Shown: piece by piece, positions 35,289 through 54,967 of the stretch | How positions within the stretch are numbered: position 1 is the first letter of the stretch | Layout of the letters: each line of letters begins with the position of its first letter | NCBI GenBank assembly: GCA_046344715.1 | Contig: JBKDKX010000006.1 | Span: 96,826 to 160,825, forward strand | DNA: 64,000 nt | Direction of reading: 5' to 3' | Source: Alphaproteobacteria bacterium | GTDB taxonomy: Bacteria; Pseudomonadota; Alphaproteobacteria; Rickettsiales; SXRF01 | The notes under the pieces: model-generated | Databases searched by the model: none | What the model was told of the DNA's origin: nothing | Seen by the model: only the letters and a program-made list of their open reading frames with translations | Program-made: the position numbers and the translations under genes

Positions 35289-37025
35289 TTATATGTTAAA
35301 ATACTTCGCCTGCGGATGATGCACTACAATGGCGGATGTTGACGCTTCCGGATGTAGCTGGAATTCATCCGACAGTTCGATGCCGATTTTATCTGCACCA
35401 AGCAATGTAAGCAAAATTTTCTGGTCTTCAAGGCGCGGACATGCAGGATAGCCGAACGAATAACGGCTGCCGCGATAACCCTGCTTCACCAGCTTTTTCA
35501 TGTCGCGCTCATCTTCATGGCCAAAGCCAAGCTCGGAGCGAATGCGTTTATGGATATATTCGGCGAGTCCTTCCGCCATCTCCACACCCAACCCGTGCAG
35601 GTATAAATAATCCTGGTAACGGTTATTGGCAAACCATTCGCGGCCAATATCCGCCACGCGCTGGCCGGCGGTTACCACCTGCATACCAATTACATCGCGT
35701 TCACCTGCATCTACATCGCGGAAAAAATCAGCAACACAGATGCCTCCATCCTTATCCTGCCGCGGAAGGTTGAAGCGGCCAATTTCCTTGCTGCCTGACT
35801 CATCAAACAAAATCACATCATTGCCCTGCGATGCGCATTTGAAATAGCCGTACGCCGCTTTGGGCTGGATGATGTTATCCTTCTCGGATTCCGAGAGCAG
35901 CCGCACTAAAATAGGCTTCACATCTGTTTCCACCCACTTCCAGTATTCCTCCAGCGACTTGCCGGATTTTTTGAAGCCCCAGTGGAACGTGTACAGCATC
36001 TGCTCATTGAGATAGGGCACAAGCGCGCGCATCGGCACGTTATCAATAACACGTGCACCCCAGAAAGGTGGTGTTGGCACTGACGTTTGTTTCGCCAGCT
36101 CTTCGCGCTTCAATTTTATCGCTTCCAGTTCCACAGGCCGCAGTTCCACCGCTGGCTTTGCTTCATGATTCGCCCAACGTTGTTTAGCTTTTGACGGCGC
36201 TGGCCGGTTATGCTTGCGGTTTTTGACTTCCTGCAAATAGGCATCAAATTGACCGGAGGCAATTTTATTCATGAGGTCGAGCCCATCAAACGCATCTTGT
36301 GCATAAGCCACACGCCCTGGGCCGTAAGCGCTCATGCAGTCTTCTTCCACATAGGCACGCGTGAGCGCAGCACCACCCAGCAGCACCGGCACATCATACC
36401 CAAGCTGCGTTAGTTCTTCCAGATTCTCGCGCATGATGACGGTGGATTTAACGAGCAATCCCGAAAGCCCAACCGCATCCGGTTTGTGCTGCTTTATGGC
36501 TTCCACAATATTGGAAATGGGCTGCTTGATGCCTAGATTCAGCACTTTGTAGCCATTATTGGTGAGGATGATATCCACGAGGTTCTTCCCGATATCATGC
36601 ACGTCGCCTTTCACTGTGGCCAGCACGATTACGCCTTTTTCTTGCCCCTCAACCTTTTCCATAAATTGCTCTAAATAAGCCACGGCCTTTTTCATCGTCT
36701 CTGCCGATTGCAGAACGAATGGCAACTGCATCTTGCCCGCACCAAAAAGCTCACCCACAACTTTCATGCCTTCAAGCAATATGTTGTTAATGATTGCAAG
36801 CGGTGCATGTGTCTTCATCGCTTCTGCCAGATCTTCTTCCAGCCCTTTTTTATCACCATCAATAATGCGTTCTTTCAGCACTTCTTCGATGGTATCGGCA
36901 CGCTCTTTTTTCTTTGCCGCCTCACCGGTGCGCCCTTCAAACAGCGCGATAAAATACTGCAGCGGATCATATGGGTCATCCGGGGTGCCTAGGGGTTTCT
37001 TGGGGATATTGGGGTTTTCGGTCAT
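35289..37025 (-). CDS. metH: Methionine synthase, C-terminal part (B12 cap, cobalamin-binding and AdoMet-reactivation modules)
   Basis: 578 aa. Cap helix bundle, the cobalamin motif GDVHDIGKN...LSGLL, then an activation-domain-like C-terminal half (..RPGYPACP-like FGYPACPRLEDQ). Confidence 0.85.
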   Translation of the reverse strand: MTENPNIPKKPLGTPDDPYDPLQYFIALFEGRTGEAAKKKERADTIEEVLKERIIDGDKKGLEEDLAEAMKTHAPLAIINNILLEGMKVVGELFGAGKMQLPFVLQSAETMKKAVAYLEQFMEKVEGQEKGVIVLATVKGDVHDIGKNLVDIILTNNGYKVLNLGIKQPISNIVEAIKQHKPDAVGLSGLLVKSTVIMRENLEELTQLGYDVPVLLGGAALTRAYVEEDCMSAYGPGRVAYAQDAFDGLDLMNKIASGQFDAYLQEVKNRKHNRPAPSKAKQRWANHEAKPAVELRPVELEAIKLKREELAKQTSVPTPPFWGARVIDNVPMRALVPYLNEQMLYTFHWGFKKSGKSLEEYWKWVETDVKPILVRLLSESEKDNIIQPKAAYGYFKCASQGNDVILFDESGSKEIGRFNLPRQDKDGGICVADFFRDVDAGERDVIGMQVVTAGQRVADIGREWFANNRYQDYLYLHGLGVEMAEGLAEYIHKRIRSELGFGHEDERDMKKLVKQGYRGSRYSFGYPACPRLEDQKILLTLLGADKIGIELSDEFQLHPEASTSAIVVHHPQAKYFNI

Positions 37026-37031
37026 GCTTGC

Positions 37032-37799
37032 TCAATAAACCCCTTCATCGGCAATATCAAGCACGCGCGCGCAATGCTTGCAGTGTACAGCGTCACGGTC
37101 ATGCAGCAAAAGTCCACAATCAGGGCATTTATGGCGTACCTTGTTTGGGCGGAAGACTGTTTGAATCAATCGGATAAACAGTGAAACGCCGAATATCATA
37201 ATAATAACCGCAATCAGCTTTCCGCTGTCACCTTGCAGCGTAATATCACCAAAACCGGTGGTGGTGAGTGTTGTAACTGTGAAATACAGCGCATCAATGT
37301 AATTTTTGATATTAGGGTTGCTTCCCACCTGCGATTCAAACACCACCGCCGTCATAACAAAAATGAAAATCAGAAGGTTGGTAGCGGATAGCATTACGTC
37401 CTCATGCCTCCGGAAAAACGTAAAATCCTGCCGCAGATGTTTCAGCACCGTGTAAGAGCGCAGCAATCTCAGCAGCCGCGCCACACGCAGGAAGGCCATA
37501 TTTTCACCCACCAGCGGCGCCAGCAATGAAATAATAGTTAGTATATCGGCGATACCATAAGGGCTTACAAAAAATGCCGTTTTACTCTTGGCAATCCACA
37601 ACCGCGCCGATACATCAAGCACCACCACCACGCCAATCACCAGATCAAGCATCTCGATCAGCGGCGCACCATAATAAAATGATGAGATAAACAGATAAAA
37701 AACAATCAGCACATCAAATGCCAGCAATGCATAGCGAAAATGTTTAGCGCGTGCGGCGTCGCTTTCATAAAAATATTCGATCTTGGTTTTAAGCGTCAT
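37032..37799 (-). CDS. Six-TM voltage-sensor-type K+ channel with a C-terminal zinc-ribbon-like tail
   Basis: 255 aa. S4-like LRVARLLRLLRS (Arg at every third residue), the selectivity filter TTLTTTGFGD, and the C-terminal CPDCG...HCKHC. Confidence 0.75.
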   Translation of the reverse strand: MTLKTKIEYFYESDAARAKHFRYALLAFDVLIVFYLFISSFYYGAPLIEMLDLVIGVVVVLDVSARLWIAKSKTAFFVSPYGIADILTIISLLAPLVGENMAFLRVARLLRLLRSYTVLKHLRQDFTFFRRHEDVMLSATNLLIFIFVMTAVVFESQVGSNPNIKNYIDALYFTVTTLTTTGFGDITLQGDSGKLIAVIIMIFGVSLFIRLIQTVFRPNKVRHKCPDCGLLLHDRDAVHCKHCARVLDIADEGVY

Positions 37800-37805
37800 G
37801 ATGAT

Positions 37806-38174
37806 TTAATTGCTCGTTGGAAATCCGCGTTCATTCCAGCCGCGCCAACCACCGGCCATCGAAAGCACATTGGTATATCCCATTTTTTGCAAGGAGTCCG
37901 CGGCAAGCGCTGAACGATATCCGCCACCGCAATAAAGCACCATCGGTGTGGCTTTATCCGGCACTTTAGATTCGATATAACACTCGATAATACCCTTGCT
38001 TAAATGCACCGCGCCCGTGATTCTTCCTGCAGCAAATTCTGACTCTTCGCGTGTGTCTATGAGCAGGAAAGGCAAGGATTTATGGATATTTGCCATCACT
38101 TCTTCCGCGCTGATTTCCTTTATGCGCGTTTTTGCATCATCAACCAGTTTTAGAAATGCAGAGTTATGGTTCAT
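37806..38174 (-). CDS. Single-domain rhodanese (sulfurtransferase)
   Basis: 122 aa. Active-site loop LYCGGGYRSA. The ATG overlaps the stop of the upstream metH part (ATGA). Confidence 0.75.
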   Translation of the reverse strand: MNHNSAFLKLVDDAKTRIKEISAEEVMANIHKSLPFLLIDTREESEFAAGRITGAVHLSKGIIECYIESKVPDKATPMVLYCGGGYRSALAADSLQKMGYTNVLSMAGGWRGWNERGFPTSN

Positions 38175-40009
38175 GCCACCTTCTCCATCGGGCTTCTTCT
38201 ATCAAAAATCAAATCTTCCGCCGCTTGCACTTCATGCGCAGGAATTTTGTGCAATGGCTTAATTTTACTCACATGGATAATTGCACCCGTCATGCCACGT
38301 TTTTGTGCATGGTCAAGATACACAGAATTGAGCACATGGCGTGCTGCCGGATTTAAGCCGAATGAAATATTGGATAAGCCCAGAATAATCTGTATATCCG
38401 GCAGTTCTTTGGCAATGCGCTCAATCGCCTCAAGCGTCCAGAGCCCTAGTTTTCGGTCATCTTCGTTGCCAGTGCAGATGGTAAACGTTAGCGGATCAAT
38501 CATCAAATCCGAAGGCGGCAGGCCATAGCCCTCGCAGCAGAATTTATAGAGCCTGTGGGCAATCGCTAGTTTACGATCCACATCCTTCGCCATGCCTTCT
38601 TCATCAATGGTAAGAGCAATTACGGCAGCACCATATTTTTTGGCAAGCTGCATGCGTTTATGTGCGGGTTCTTCACCGTCTTCAAAGTTGATGGAGTTGA
38701 TAATCGCCTTACCGCCATAGAGTTTCAATGCTGCCTCGAGCACCACCAGTTCGGTGGAATCAATCACCAGCGGTGCTGTAACGCTGCCACGCAAGCGCGA
38801 TACCATTTCGCTCATGTCTTTTATCTCATCGCGACCAACAAATGCCGTGCAGATATCCAGCGTGTGCGAACCTTCTTTCACCTGTTCCTTGGCCATGTCG
38901 ATGCAGGTATCCCAATCTTCCCTGTCCTGTGCTTCCTTGAACTTTTTTGAACCGTTGGCATTGCAACGCTCGCCGATGGCAAGAATGGCATTATCCTGCC
39001 GCAGTTCCGTTTGCTGGTAAAGCGAGGCAACCGCTGGTATCCAATGCTGCGTGCGGGCAACTGGCGCAGGGCGGCGTTTGCCGCCTTCCTGACGCGCAAG
39101 CATTGCGTTCAGTGCTGCGATATGGTTTTCATTCGTTCCACAGCAGCCACCAATAATGTTGATGCCGTCCTCTTTCAGAAAACGCTCCATCCAGCGCGCC
39201 ATTTCATCAGGCCCGAGCGGAAAATGCACATGGCCTTCATGCATTTCAGGCAGGCCAGCATTTGGCAGCACTGAAATTTTATGCGGCCAGTTTTGCGAAA
39301 GCCAGCGCACATGATCAGCCATTTCCTGCGGGCCAGTGGCGCAATTTAGCCCCATGCTGAATACATCAAGCGCATCAATGATGGTCGCAGCCGCTGCAAT
39401 ATCGCTGCCCACCAGCATCGTACCTGTTGTCTCTACCGTCACCTGTACCATGATAGGAAGGGTAATACCTGCTTTGTTCATGGCGATTTTTGCACCATTG
39501 ACCGCCGCTTTTATTTGCAGCGGATCTTGCGCTGTCTCAACTAAAAATGCATCCGCCCTGCCTTCAATCAATCCATGCGCCTGCAAGGTAAAGGACGCCT
39601 CCAGCGCATCATAATCAATATGACCAAGACTCGGCAGTTTTGTCCCCGGACCAATGGCACCCACTACAAAACGCTCTCTGCCATCATGCGCAAATTCTGC
39701 AATCGCCTCATGCGCCAGCTCGCAAGCACGGCGGTTGATTTCCAAGGTTTTATCGGAAAGTTCAAATTCACCCAGCGTGATGGATGAACCGCCAAATGTA
39801 TTGGTTTCCACCGCATCTGCACCTGCTGCTAAATATTTTTTATGCACATCGCGCACAAAATCCGGCCGCGAGAGATTGAGGATTTCTGAGCAGTTTTCCT
39901 GCCCCCAGTAATCCTTCTCCACGTCAAGGTTTACGGCCTGAATCTGCGTTCCCATCGCCCCATCGAGCAGCAGCACCTGTGATTCAACAAATTCAGAAAA
40001 ACGGCTCAT
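38171..40009 (-). CDS. metH: Methionine synthase, N-terminal part (homocysteine S-methyltransferase and pterin-binding modules)
   Basis: 612 aa. LLDGAMGTQIQ, GLNCATGP, IIGGCCGT (Hcy module Zn ligands), then the pterin-binding module ..IGERCNANGSKKF...LDIC...INSI... Confidence 0.85.
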   Translation of the reverse strand: MSRFSEFVESQVLLLDGAMGTQIQAVNLDVEKDYWGQENCSEILNLSRPDFVRDVHKKYLAAGADAVETNTFGGSSITLGEFELSDKTLEINRRACELAHEAIAEFAHDGRERFVVGAIGPGTKLPSLGHIDYDALEASFTLQAHGLIEGRADAFLVETAQDPLQIKAAVNGAKIAMNKAGITLPIMVQVTVETTGTMLVGSDIAAAATIIDALDVFSMGLNCATGPQEMADHVRWLSQNWPHKISVLPNAGLPEMHEGHVHFPLGPDEMARWMERFLKEDGINIIGGCCGTNENHIAALNAMLARQEGGKRRPAPVARTQHWIPAVASLYQQTELRQDNAILAIGERCNANGSKKFKEAQDREDWDTCIDMAKEQVKEGSHTLDICTAFVGRDEIKDMSEMVSRLRGSVTAPLVIDSTELVVLEAALKLYGGKAIINSINFEDGEEPAHKRMQLAKKYGAAVIALTIDEEGMAKDVDRKLAIAHRLYKFCCEGYGLPPSDLMIDPLTFTICTGNEDDRKLGLWTLEAIERIAKELPDIQIILGLSNISFGLNPAARHVLNSVYLDHAQKRGMTGAIIHVSKIKPLHKIPAHEVQAAEDLIFDRRSPMEKVA

Positions 40010-40062
40010 TTTTTATATTCCATGGGCATGACAAGTTTTTAATATGTGCTATATAGAGGCTT

Positions 40063-54890: not shown

Positions 54891-54967
54891 TGGTGGGTCC
54901 GGGAGGATTTGAACCTCCTACCCCCGCCTTATCAGAGCGGTGCTCTAACCAAATGAGCTACGAACCC
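54891..54967 (-). tRNA. tRNA-Ile (anticodon GAU), CCA encoded
   Basis: Reverse complement: GGGTTCG TA GCTC ATTTGGTTA GAGC A CCGCT CTGATAA GGCGG GGGTA GGAGG TTCAAAT CCTCC CGGACCC ACCA. The cloverleaf folds by hand: 7-bp acceptor stem, 4-bp D stem, 5-bp anticodon stem, 5-bp T stem. Confidence 0.9.

Follow-up and report, generated by a model that had tools for sequence, protein, structure and literature searches.

Methionine synthase (MetH) is a textbook enzyme that works by large movements of tethered domains. In the window analysed here (the whole stretch of 64,000 nucleotides of alphaproteobacterial DNA), its modules are divided between two open reading frames, and genes for a rhodanese and a voltage-sensor K+ channel lie between them. 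This raises the question of whether the two halves still make up an enzyme, and whether the genes between them belong to it. Overall, the locus quite probably encodes a cobalamin-dependent methionine synthase made of two subunits, a form that is fixed in an uncultured lineage of alphaproteobacteria, with the rhodanese and the channel as passengers.

Organisation of the locus

As the sequence-only reading had described, the ORF map gives four intact minus-strand genes in the order metH-N, rhodanese, channel, metH-C (Table 1). The junctions read from the sequence also agree with that description: metH-N and the rhodanese overlap in ATGA (GCA-TGA / ATG-AAC), and the other two junctions of the block are 6-nt spacers, ATCATC and then GCAAGC. 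Internal promoter-like or terminator-like sites in the four-gene block do not exceed shuffle expectation, and no Rfam element was found in the region, including the gap between metH-N and radA. Since no other non-coding space lies upstream of the block, the promoter is presumed to be in this gap; the single promoter-like match, on the plus strand only, is within chance expectation. With four genes so tightly packed and internal signals absent, co-transcription in this genome is the simplest reading.

An assembly error at 37025-38174 had been named as a possible refutation. It is excluded by an identical locus recovered in Logan SRR31514704 and by the same gene order in GCA_964535825.1, a 93%-identical relative; two further runs also keep the four-gene order.

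Table 1. Features of the split metH locus (positions in the window).
Feature	Position	Strand	Remarks
metH-N (alpha subunit; Hcy and Fol barrels)	38171..40009	-	612 aa; PF02574 (4.9e-80, homocysteine-binding barrel), PF00809 (1.5e-42, pterin/methyl-THF barrel)
GLNCATGP, zinc-ligand motif of metH-N	39329-39352
GGCCGT, zinc-ligand motif of metH-N	39134-39151
Alpha C-terminal tail SPMEKVA	38174..38194	-	without counterpart in fused orthologues
Single-domain rhodanese	37806..38174	-	122 aa; PF00581 (7.3e-21)
CGGGYRS loop of rhodanese	37911-37931		aa 82-88
Kv-like 6-TM K+ channel	37032..37799	-	255 aa; PF00520 (3.5e-15), PF07885 (1.5e-16)
S4 segment RVARLLRLLRS of channel	37455-37487		aa 105-115
Filter TTGFGD of channel	37245-37262		aa 180-185
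C-terminal zinc ribbon of channel	37071-37127		CxxC-x11-CxxC
metH-C (beta subunit; Linker II helix, cap, B12, AdoMet reactivation)	35289..37025	-	578 aa; PF02607 (5.5e-24, cap), PF02310 (1.7e-20, B12-binding), PF02965 (4.4e-41, reactivation)
Beta conserved head IPKKPLGTPDDP	36972..37007	-	clade-specific; without counterpart in fused orthologues
Linker II helix YDPLQYFIALFEG...	36894-36971	-	directly after beta head IPKKPLGTPDDP
GDVHDIGKN, B12 motif of metH-C	36582-36608
RYSFGYPACP of metH-C	35436-35465
Divergent intergenic region, metH-N/radA	40010..40062	.	53 nt; ORF map; presumed promoter region
Promoter-like match	39992-40019	+	within chance expectation

The two halves of MetH

The reading that the longer half ends after the homocysteine and pterin modules was borne out by the Pfam matches, with PF00809 matched over its full length (1-244/244), and by TIGR02082, which metH-N covers from position 2 to 612 (668.7 bits). 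It aligns to residues 45-633 of Thermus MetH (8G3H; E 5e-163), and its motifs GLNCATGP and GGCCGT align with that protein and are conserved, giving the three cysteine zinc ligands of the Hcy barrel. The other half likewise carries the B12 cap, the GDVHDIGKN motif and the reactivation module attributed to it; it covers TIGR02082 positions 612-1182 (575.0 bits) and aligns to residues 598-1149 of Thermus MetH (8SSC; E 1e-153). GDVHDIGKN, SGL and GGAAL reproduce the DxHxxG...SxL...GG pattern, and RYSFGYPACP aligns with Thermus RYSFGYPACP of the AdoMet reactivation domain. Compared with single-chain MetH (E. coli; Thermus 8G3H/8SSC; TIGR02082), all five modules and their order are therefore unchanged and no cofactor or substrate motif is missing, but the modules are spread over two polypeptides.

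It follows from the profile positions that the halves abut on MetH without gap or overlap. The cut sits at TIGR02082 position 612, after the folate barrel and before the Fol:Cap hinge helix (Linker II), and neither half reaches the cut-off of the single-polypeptide MetH equivalog (1010.85 bits). Both halves are 60-72% identical to fused orthologues and keep all MetH motifs; at the cut there are about 25 extra residues compared with these orthologues. On the alpha side, the last Fol-barrel helix (...DLIFDRR) is followed by a 7-residue tail whose pattern, [S/L]Pxxx(A/V)A, recurs in 94 of the 118 N-half clusters. On the beta side, the head IPKKPAGTxDDP has I, P, K, P, G, T, D, D and P nearly invariant across 119 C-half clusters, and this conservation extends to genomes in which the halves are unlinked.

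If the two ORFs were the remnants of a decaying metH, or an assembly chimera, their lengths and termini would hardly be expected to persist. Among the best 120 N-half homologues (80-100% identity) lengths run from 573 to 654 aa, with almost all at 609-617 aa, and the best 120 C-half homologues have 570-591 aa; at least 120 protein clusters per half are thus of conserved length. Against the 93%-identical relative, and with dS saturated, dN/dS is 0.036 for metH-N, 0.035 for metH-C, 0.063 for the rhodanese and 0.055 for the channel, which indicates strong purifying selection on all four genes. Nothing beyond the unusual gene order speaks for decay or chimerism, a reading of negligible probability that is refuted by purifying selection, conserved lengths and new termini, and identical or similar loci in independent assemblies. 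The same observations (conserved half lengths, dN/dS about 0.04, the same order in independent assemblies) uphold the earlier view that this is not a recent disruptive insertion. By all these comparative indications, the division of this cobalamin-dependent MetH into two proteins is old and probably functional.

Distribution of the split

The comparison set consisted of 28 species-level genomes, namely 27 relatives and the present genome, with 15 loci in which the halves are linked. The split was found in 27 GTDB species genomes, which form one clade against fused outgroups at no more than 72% identity. Across the 28 genomes the halves are 64 nt apart at the closest and more than 20-55 kb apart at the widest, on a backbone synteny of radA|metH-N ... 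metH-C|comF. In GCA_025360605.1 the halves are about 55 kb apart on one contig, in the genome of locus L025 they are about 23 kb apart and inverted, and in about 12 of the 28 genomes they are unlinked. Unlinked halves may occupy different operons, for example hemE-hemH-hemJ-metH-C. The Fol|Cap split recurs in at least two other lineages, one of which was shown to be broken at the same residue position (the independent lineage L170-172, with the same break point).

Since the halves can lie so far apart, it might be supposed that after the split they took on partly independent roles, the beta subunit as a free corrinoid/reactivation protein for other methyltransferases or the alpha subunit with other corrinoid donors, which would resemble the dual-use MtgC of roseobacters. 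The frequent unlinking, sometimes into different operons, is in line with this, and a shared corrinoid subunit has precedent (PMC12478193). However, both halves co-occur in each genome checked, retain the full MetH motif set at the identity to fused orthologues given above, and have no extra partner methyltransferase near either of them. Independent roles are therefore considered unlikely, and a single two-part methionine synthase is preferred.

Genes between the halves

The rhodanese was correctly recognised in the sequence-only reading: the PF00581 match, the CGGGYRS active-site loop and the ATG overlapping the metH-N stop are all present. In common with single-domain rhodaneses (GlpE, PspE; PDB 6MXV), it has one domain with a CX4R loop. 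It is about 60% identical to each domain of 6MXV, where the loop C-GGGY-R is conserved as CGGGFR, and 61-69% identical to rhodaneses of about 123 aa from many phyla; a catalytic cysteine in the rhodanese fold is present and activity is predicted.

The 6-TM channel with its S4-like segment and filter also stands, on Pfam, hydropathy and motifs. Hydropathy is consistent with S1-S6, and the protein aligns to KvAP (1ORQ/2A0L) over residues 24-216. In 80 homologues R105, R108 and R111, the TTGFGD filter and the four cysteines are invariant, while R114 is retained in 70 and replaced by H in the rest. Six TM segments, S4 arginines and a K+ filter of the TxGxGD type, together forming a voltage-sensor and pore, are thus common to this channel, KvAP and the MVP family. 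In contrast to the MVP family, it bears a C-terminal zinc ribbon and falls far below the cut-off of the hyperpolarisation-activated MVP equivalog NF040645 (72.6 vs 300 bits).

Both cargo genes are intact and under selection, and they are probably co-transcribed with metH. It had been suggested that the four genes form a functional module, in which the K+ channel would be physiologically coupled to methionine synthesis. The 6-nt spacers, the shared strand, the purifying selection on the channel and the order kept in the 93%-identical relative fit such a module, but operon-like tight packing in one genome is weak evidence for a functional link. When relatives were searched for the metH(N)-rhodanese-channel-metH(C) order, it was present in GCA_964535825.1 and two runs but was not kept across the 15 linked loci. 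The rhodanese lies between the halves in 10 of these species-level loci and the channel in just 3, scattered on the MetH tree; the channel occurs between metH halves only in this genome, L010, L014 and L162-164, and in L014 without the rhodanese. The rhodanese is the sole cargo in L001, L011 and L022, and L005 has no cargo, only 64 nt with stops in all frames. Elsewhere the same spacer holds unrelated genes, some of them in reverse orientation: an alpha/beta-hydrolase, a 2OG-Fe oxygenase, DUF421, a sulfatase-like membrane protein and, on the opposite strand, a retropepsin-like aspartyl protease. The 80 channel homologues (49-60% identity) all lack metH and a rhodanese within 5 kb. With cargo so heterogeneous, and the homologues looked up elsewhere in unrelated contexts, the proposed link of the rhodanese and the channel with metH is not supported, and the four-gene module, which the comparative data largely refute, is highly improbable.

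A narrower possibility is that the rhodanese alone is a dedicated accessory of the split enzyme, its placement reflecting selection for co-expression; it could serve as a source or relay of sulfane sulfur for the synthesis of homocysteine, or in the protection or repair of the Zn-thiolate or cobalamin site. Its low dN/dS and its frequency in the linked loci are in favour, as is the ATGA overlap with metH-N in this genome, L011 and L022. In GCA_025360605.1 it has gone along with metH-C in the rearrangement and still shares 4 nt with the start of that gene, and in 11 genomes it stands beside either half; a neutral passenger would be expected to persist somewhat less. However, the rhodanese tree is compatible with a single placement in an ancestor and vertical descent from then on, so that the 11 cases are not independent. 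The gene is also missing from L003, L005, L006, L014 and L026 and from the C-half neighbourhoods of L166 and L167, and the 53 outgroup loci with a fused metH have no rhodanese within 8 kb of it. The family is widespread, with no MetH-domain fusions, and the homologues looked up elsewhere adjoin polA or peptidase M19, none being beside metH. An accessory role is therefore unlikely. Of the two passengers, the rhodanese has the longer history and the greater persistence, and the channel is sporadic; GC3 of the cargo genes falls inside the local range.

Comparison with known systems and proposed mechanism

Natural MetH splits with parts separated by unrelated genes, of which the sequence-only reading knew no case, are already on record: BT0180/BT0249 of Bacteroides and three genes of Phaeobacter are examples (PMC7311316, PMC12478193). 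Burkholderia phytofirmans divides the enzyme as Hcy | Fol-Cap-Cob-Act (BPHYT_RS02310 and RS02305) and Bacteroides thetaiotaomicron as Hcy-Fol-Cap-Cob | Act (BT0180 and BT0249), a two-part metH is also found in Sphingomonas koreensis and Rhodanobacter, and genetics shows that both parts are needed; a Fol|Cap split is not mentioned in this literature (PMC7311316, PMC7857596, bioRxiv 10.1101/2024.10.14.618325). As in these cases, a classical MetH is divided here at a domain boundary, and two genes, adjacent or unlinked, supply all modules. Unlike the known break types, Hcy|Fol (Burkholderia) and Cob|Act (Bacteroides/Thermotoga) (PMC7311316), the break lies at Fol|Cap, the third inter-domain linker, and the spacer holds variable cargo genes. 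The Fol|Cap break point is a new variant among natural MetH splits.

Almost the same cut has been made in laboratory fragments that fold on their own as Hcy-Fol and Cap-Cob-Act pieces: human 1-657 (4CCZ), T. maritima Hcy-Fol (1Q7M), E. coli 649-1227 (1K7Y, 3BUL) and Thermus Cap-Cob-Act (8SSD). Goulding, Postigo and Matthews reportedly found in 1997 that an N-terminal fragment of the E. coli enzyme transfers methyl to and from exogenous cobalamin, and that a C-terminal fragment binds cobalamin and undergoes reactivation. Those fragments are engineered pieces, whereas the natural halves bear conserved extra termini.

The scheme considered most probable is as follows. An ancestral single metH was severed where the folate barrel ends and the Fol:Cap hinge helix begins, leaving both substrate sites on alpha, with its Hcy and Fol barrels. 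Since beta holds the Linker II helix and the cap, B12 and reactivation domains, it would carry the cofactor and repair it in cis. With two separate chains, catalysis would have to depend on intermolecular docking, in which beta would present its B12 domain alternately to the Fol barrel and the Hcy barrel of alpha, as corrinoid proteins do with their methyltransferases. Such a mechanism operates in the three-part methionine synthase/MtgBCDE of Phaeobacter inhibens and Ruegeria pomeroyi, where a free corrinoid protein shuttles methyl between separate pterin- and homocysteine-binding proteins; however, its subunits are not descended from classical MetH and its reactivation system is non-homologous (PMC12478193), whereas here the classical MetH origin of both halves is clear, and the B12 domain has kept its fused reactivation domain. 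From sequence, we infer that alpha and beta associate and have methionine synthase activity, and the conserved new termini may aid the association. After the split, the spacer probably behaved as an ordinary intergenic region, in which rearrangement breakpoints and genes of no relation to metH gathered; here its cargo is a housekeeping-type rhodanese and a Kv-like channel, which are probably not parts of the enzyme.

According to current structural models, the covalent Fol:Cap linker guides the way in which the domains rearrange (bioRxiv 10.1101/2024.08.29.610163), and severing this linker might therefore impair catalysis, which is a point against a working two-part enzyme. Tentatively, the enzyme could work with Linker II severed because the beta head and the alpha tail provide non-covalent docking in place of the tether. 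If so, the covalent hinge would be dispensable and the B12/reactivation subunit freed for other partners. The main interest of the split lineage is that it puts the "Linker II hinge" model of MetH to a natural test: the chain is cut at the hinge start in a whole lineage and at least two others, and the pieces are under strong selection even tens of kilobases apart. It is a ready-made two-component system for asking whether covalent tethering is needed and how the pieces find each other.

Annotation and metabolic reconstruction are also affected by a two-part MetH. The NCBI labels of the halves are "homocysteine S-methyltransferase family protein" and "B12-binding domain-containing protein", and automated pipelines may therefore score these organisms as lacking MetH.

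Organization of the split metH locus

Methionine synthase (MetH) is encoded in the window by two genes, one for an N half (alpha) with the homocysteine (Hcy) and folate (Fol) barrels and one for a C half (beta) with the Linker II helix and the Cap, B12-binding (Cob) and activation (Act) domains; a rhodanese and a Kv-like K+ channel lie between them. According to the ORF list the four ORFs run consecutively on the same strand. The stop codon of metH-N overlaps the rhodanese start (GCA TGA / ATG AAC, read from the sequence), and the remaining two junctions are 6-nt spacers, ATCATC and GCAAGC. The ORFs, domains and spacing described in the sequence-only reading were borne out by the ORF list, the sequence and Pfam/NCBIfam, and every motif that it quoted was located in the translated ORFs. 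An assembly artefact was ruled out, since an independent Logan assembly carries an identical copy of the locus and the same four genes occur in unchanged order in a 93%-identical relative (GCA_964535825.1) and in two more runs. No rRNA was found in the window.

Features of the metH locus in the window and of selected loci on related (L008-L026) and additional (L166-L170) contigs
Feature	Sequence	Positions	Strand	Description
metH-N	window	38171-40009	minus	612 aa; Hcy S-methyltransferase and pterin-binding domains (Pfam); TIGR02082 positions 2-612 (NCBIfam)
rhodanese	window	37806-38174	minus	122 aa; Pfam
channel	window	37032-37799	minus	255 aa; Ion_trans and Ion_trans_2 (Pfam)
metH-C	window	35289-37025	minus	578 aa; B12-cap, B12-binding and activation domains (Pfam); TIGR02082 positions 612-1182
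metH-N upstream spacer	window	40010-40062		53 nt
tRNA	window	54894-54967		Rfam
rhodanese/sulfatase frame	L008	9793-12021		multi-TM/sulfatase-domain protein (PF00884)
sulfatase-like protein	L026	2228-4087
toxin-antitoxin genes	L015	5108-6083		ParD-like antitoxin, YafQ-like toxin, ~150-aa ORF
HicB-like ORF	L167	3582-4004		overlaps metH-C start
haem genes and metH-C	L166	1513-5752		4-nt overlap
split metH	L170	5001-8817		P0249, 639 aa, and 613-aa partner
N half alone	L169	5001-6887		P0247, 628 aa

Break point and new termini

Split and fused proteins were aligned across the junction. Fused enzymes read ...AEDLIFDRR-xxGYDPLQAFIALFEGR..., while alpha of the split clade ends ...AEDLIFDRR followed by SPMEKVA and beta begins MTENPN-IPKKPLGTPDDP-YDPLQYFIALFEGR... 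Therefore, the cut falls after the last folate-barrel helix and before the opening residue of the Fol:Cap linker helix, which is Linker II in the Thermus enzyme. By alignment to that enzyme, the DPG residues targeted for mutation in the Koutmos laboratory fall within the segment retained by beta. The cut has gained about 25 conserved residues: a 7-residue tail, [S/L]Pxxx(A/V)A, ends 94 of 118 N halves, and I-P-(K)-K-P-x-G-T-x-D-D-P ahead of YDPLQY is nearly invariant (119 C-half clusters). This conservation is also seen where the two genes stand far apart.

During catalysis the B12 domain of MetH must reach three partners in succession: the Fol barrel, the Hcy barrel, and the activation domain. 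Independent folding is known for fragments that correspond to alpha and beta (PDB codes: 4CCZ, 1Q7M, 1K7Y, 3BUL, and 8SSD), and the E. coli fragments of Goulding et al. (1997) reportedly perform the corresponding partial reactions. Alpha and beta may form a non-covalent, possibly transient complex, in which beta would carry cobalamin and use AdoMet to repair it in cis. Methyl groups would then be transferred through docking between the two proteins, as happens in MtgBCDE and other corrinoid-protein systems (PMC12478193), and the conserved new termini are candidate docking elements.

Age of the split and selection on the two halves

For the N half, the best 120 homologues, at 80-100% identity, measure 573-654 aa, nearly all 609-617 aa, and have the two N-terminal domains only; for the C half, the best 120 measure 570-591 aa without exception. 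When one genome per GTDB species was scanned, the split N half occurred in 27 genomes, recorded as "Rickettsiales bacterium" or "Alphaproteobacteria bacterium" MAGs, and the split genomes formed one clade in a neighbour-joining tree. In the other 53 matches (67-72% identity; Rhodospirillales, Kiloniellaceae, Zavarzinia, Elstera, and others) the C-half match came directly after the N-half match, and eight of these outgroup loci, once translated, were single ORFs of 1162-1174 aa or open to the contig end.

Between the window and the 93% relative, dS is 1.1-1.9, with synonymous sites saturated, and dN/dS comes to 0.036 (metH-N), 0.035 (metH-C), 0.063 (rhodanese) and 0.055 (channel), compared with 0.046 for radA. 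Given such low values, all four are functioning genes, and there is no decay in either MetH half. The complete set of MetH modules and motifs is spread over alpha and beta, and both halves are under strong selection and kept even when unlinked. Overall, the comparison of sequences indicates that the split is an old, fixed, and functional feature of the lineage.

Relation to other split methionine synthases

MetH is often split in nature; a split MetH was the only good candidate in 9 of 35 bacteria of the GapMind test set (PMC7311316), and a two-part metH has been reported in Sphingomonas koreensis (PMC7857596). The Burkholderia type separates Hcy from the rest and the Bacteroides type separates Act from the rest, with unlinked genes, whereas MetH in the window is cut between Fol and Cap; Phaeobacter/Ruegeria have a three-part system (PMC12478193). 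In the literature searched, where the phrase "split MetH" matched mostly noise, neither a Fol|Cap split nor a MetH-rhodanese link was found described. Therefore, this appears to be a new break position and not a new kind of enzyme. Linker II has been argued to be the hinge orchestrating MetH rearrangements (bioRxiv 10.1101/2024.08.29.610163), and in the split lineage this hinge is naturally detached from the folate barrel; hence its specific interest beside structural work on Linker II, which rests on the hinge-cut two-subunit MetH and not on the genes in between.

A wider search, exhaustive over 50%-identity representatives, gave other Hcy-Fol proteins of 600-660 aa at 41-50% identity. One of them, P0249, has a Cap-Cob-Act protein 55 nt downstream that starts MPYSNE-YDPLQAF, with the same break point as in the window and an unrelated context. 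Another, P0247, is an N half alone near a B12-binding/MeaB protein. These two N halves are 49-50% identical to that of the window and represent two further lineages with an Hcy-Fol-only protein; thus, the Fol|Cap split arose more than once. The alpha protein of L170 also bears a 30-residue low-complexity tail.

Variable gene content between the halves

Gene maps of 27 genomes and the window, with Pfam searches of the intervening ORFs, showed a conserved backbone of purF-cvpA-radA on the metH-N side and comF-methyltransferase-mutT-argJ-ppiC on the metH-C side. The gap is empty in the related locus L005 (64 nt, all frames stopped). It holds a rhodanese only in L001, L011, and L022, a rhodanese and further genes in L002, L007, L009, and L020 (a 2OG-Fe(II) oxygenase in L002; DUF421 in L007), an α/β-hydrolase in L003, a rhodanese, channel, and hydrolase in L010, and a small zinc-ribbon ORF and channel in L014; L006 and L007 carry a retropepsin-like aspartyl protease on the opposite strand. 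In L008 the rhodanese shares a frame with a sulfatase-like membrane protein, either through a genuine fusion or through a frameshift in sequencing, and the corresponding position in L026 is occupied by the sulfatase-like protein without a rhodanese.

The sequence-only reading had suggested co-expression of rhodanese and channel with methionine synthesis, in one tightly coupled operon. Gap content differs among the 15 linked loci, window included: the rhodanese is present in 10 and the channel in three, which are dispersed over the MetH tree. What stands of that interpretation is the old and functional split, as judged by lengths, clade, and dN/dS, and a likely co-expression, but not a metH-rhodanese-channel functional unit.

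Some 12 genomes had no C half within 8 kb of the N half; where traced, it lay on the N half's own contig. It is ~55 kb off in GCA_025360605.1, with a rhodanese immediately upstream of metH-C (4-nt overlap), ~23 kb off and inverted in the L025 genome, and behind hemE-hemH-hemJ in an L016-type genome. Since the comF-side neighbours stay with metH-C in every traced unlinked case, the gap between the halves has been a site of insertion and rearrangement. In one sublineage (L166) metH-C follows hemE-hemH-UPF0093 (HemJ-like), so that the B12-binding half sits in a tetrapyrrole (haem) gene cluster.

Toxin-antitoxin genes lie directly upstream of metH-N in L015, L025, and L017, where the halves are unlinked, and a HicB-like ORF adjoins metH-C in L167. 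These fit a variable region, with mobile addiction modules beside the halves at places of broken synteny.

Rhodanese and channel as probable passengers

The six-TM channel aligns with KvAP over residues 24-216. All 80 homologues on metagenome contigs (49-60% identity) share an invariant TTGFGD filter, three invariant S4 arginines and, directly after S6, an invariant C-terminal CPxCGLxxHDxDAVHCKHCG (CxxC-x11-CxxC, zinc-ribbon-like); neither a metH half nor a rhodanese lies within 5 kb of any of them. The family is widespread, stand-alone, ~250-aa and Kv-like, and we know of no characterised channel with such a tail.

The rhodanese is ~60% identical to either domain of PDB 6MXV and 61-69% identical to single-domain rhodaneses of ~123 aa that occur in many phyla. 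Its N-terminal helix FLKLVDDAKTRIKE and CGGGYRS loop are conserved at 60-69% identity in distant phyla and in both 6MXV domains; it belongs to an unusually well-conserved, uncharacterised single-domain subfamily. Two homologues looked up elsewhere adjoin polA, peptidase M19, and other genes. A Rosetta-stone fusion with MetH domains was sought among the best 120 homologues, all of which are single-domain; the sole fusion seen is that with the sulfatase-like protein of L008.

Repeated independent capture of the rhodanese between the halves would have argued for function. In a neighbour-joining tree, weakly resolved given the 120-aa length of the protein, the metH-gap members fall in two adjacent basal groups, with L009 apart on a long branch. 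Repeated capture was rejected, as the tree fits one ancestral placement, within one subclade, and vertical inheritance thereafter; with a single placement, the 11 metH-linked rhodanese cases are not independent evidence. Recent horizontal insertion of the two genes was also rejected, their GC3 (rhodanese 0.47, channel 0.50) lying inside the local gene range of 0.37-0.58.

Transcription of the locus

With gaps of 6 nt and an ATGA overlap there is no space for separate promoters, so the four genes probably share one transcript and are likely co-expressed in the window. In general the halves need not be transcribed together, because relatives have intervening genes on the opposite strand or unlinked halves. 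Internal promoters and terminators were discounted, their number being at or under shuffle expectation, and a riboswitch or other RNA element over the operon was rejected after an Rfam search of the whole window at gathering thresholds, which returned a single tRNA only; the spacer upstream of metH-N, moreover, spans just 53 nt. The starts of metH-N and radA diverge across the short spacer upstream of metH-N, so that both promoters would sit inside or overlap it.
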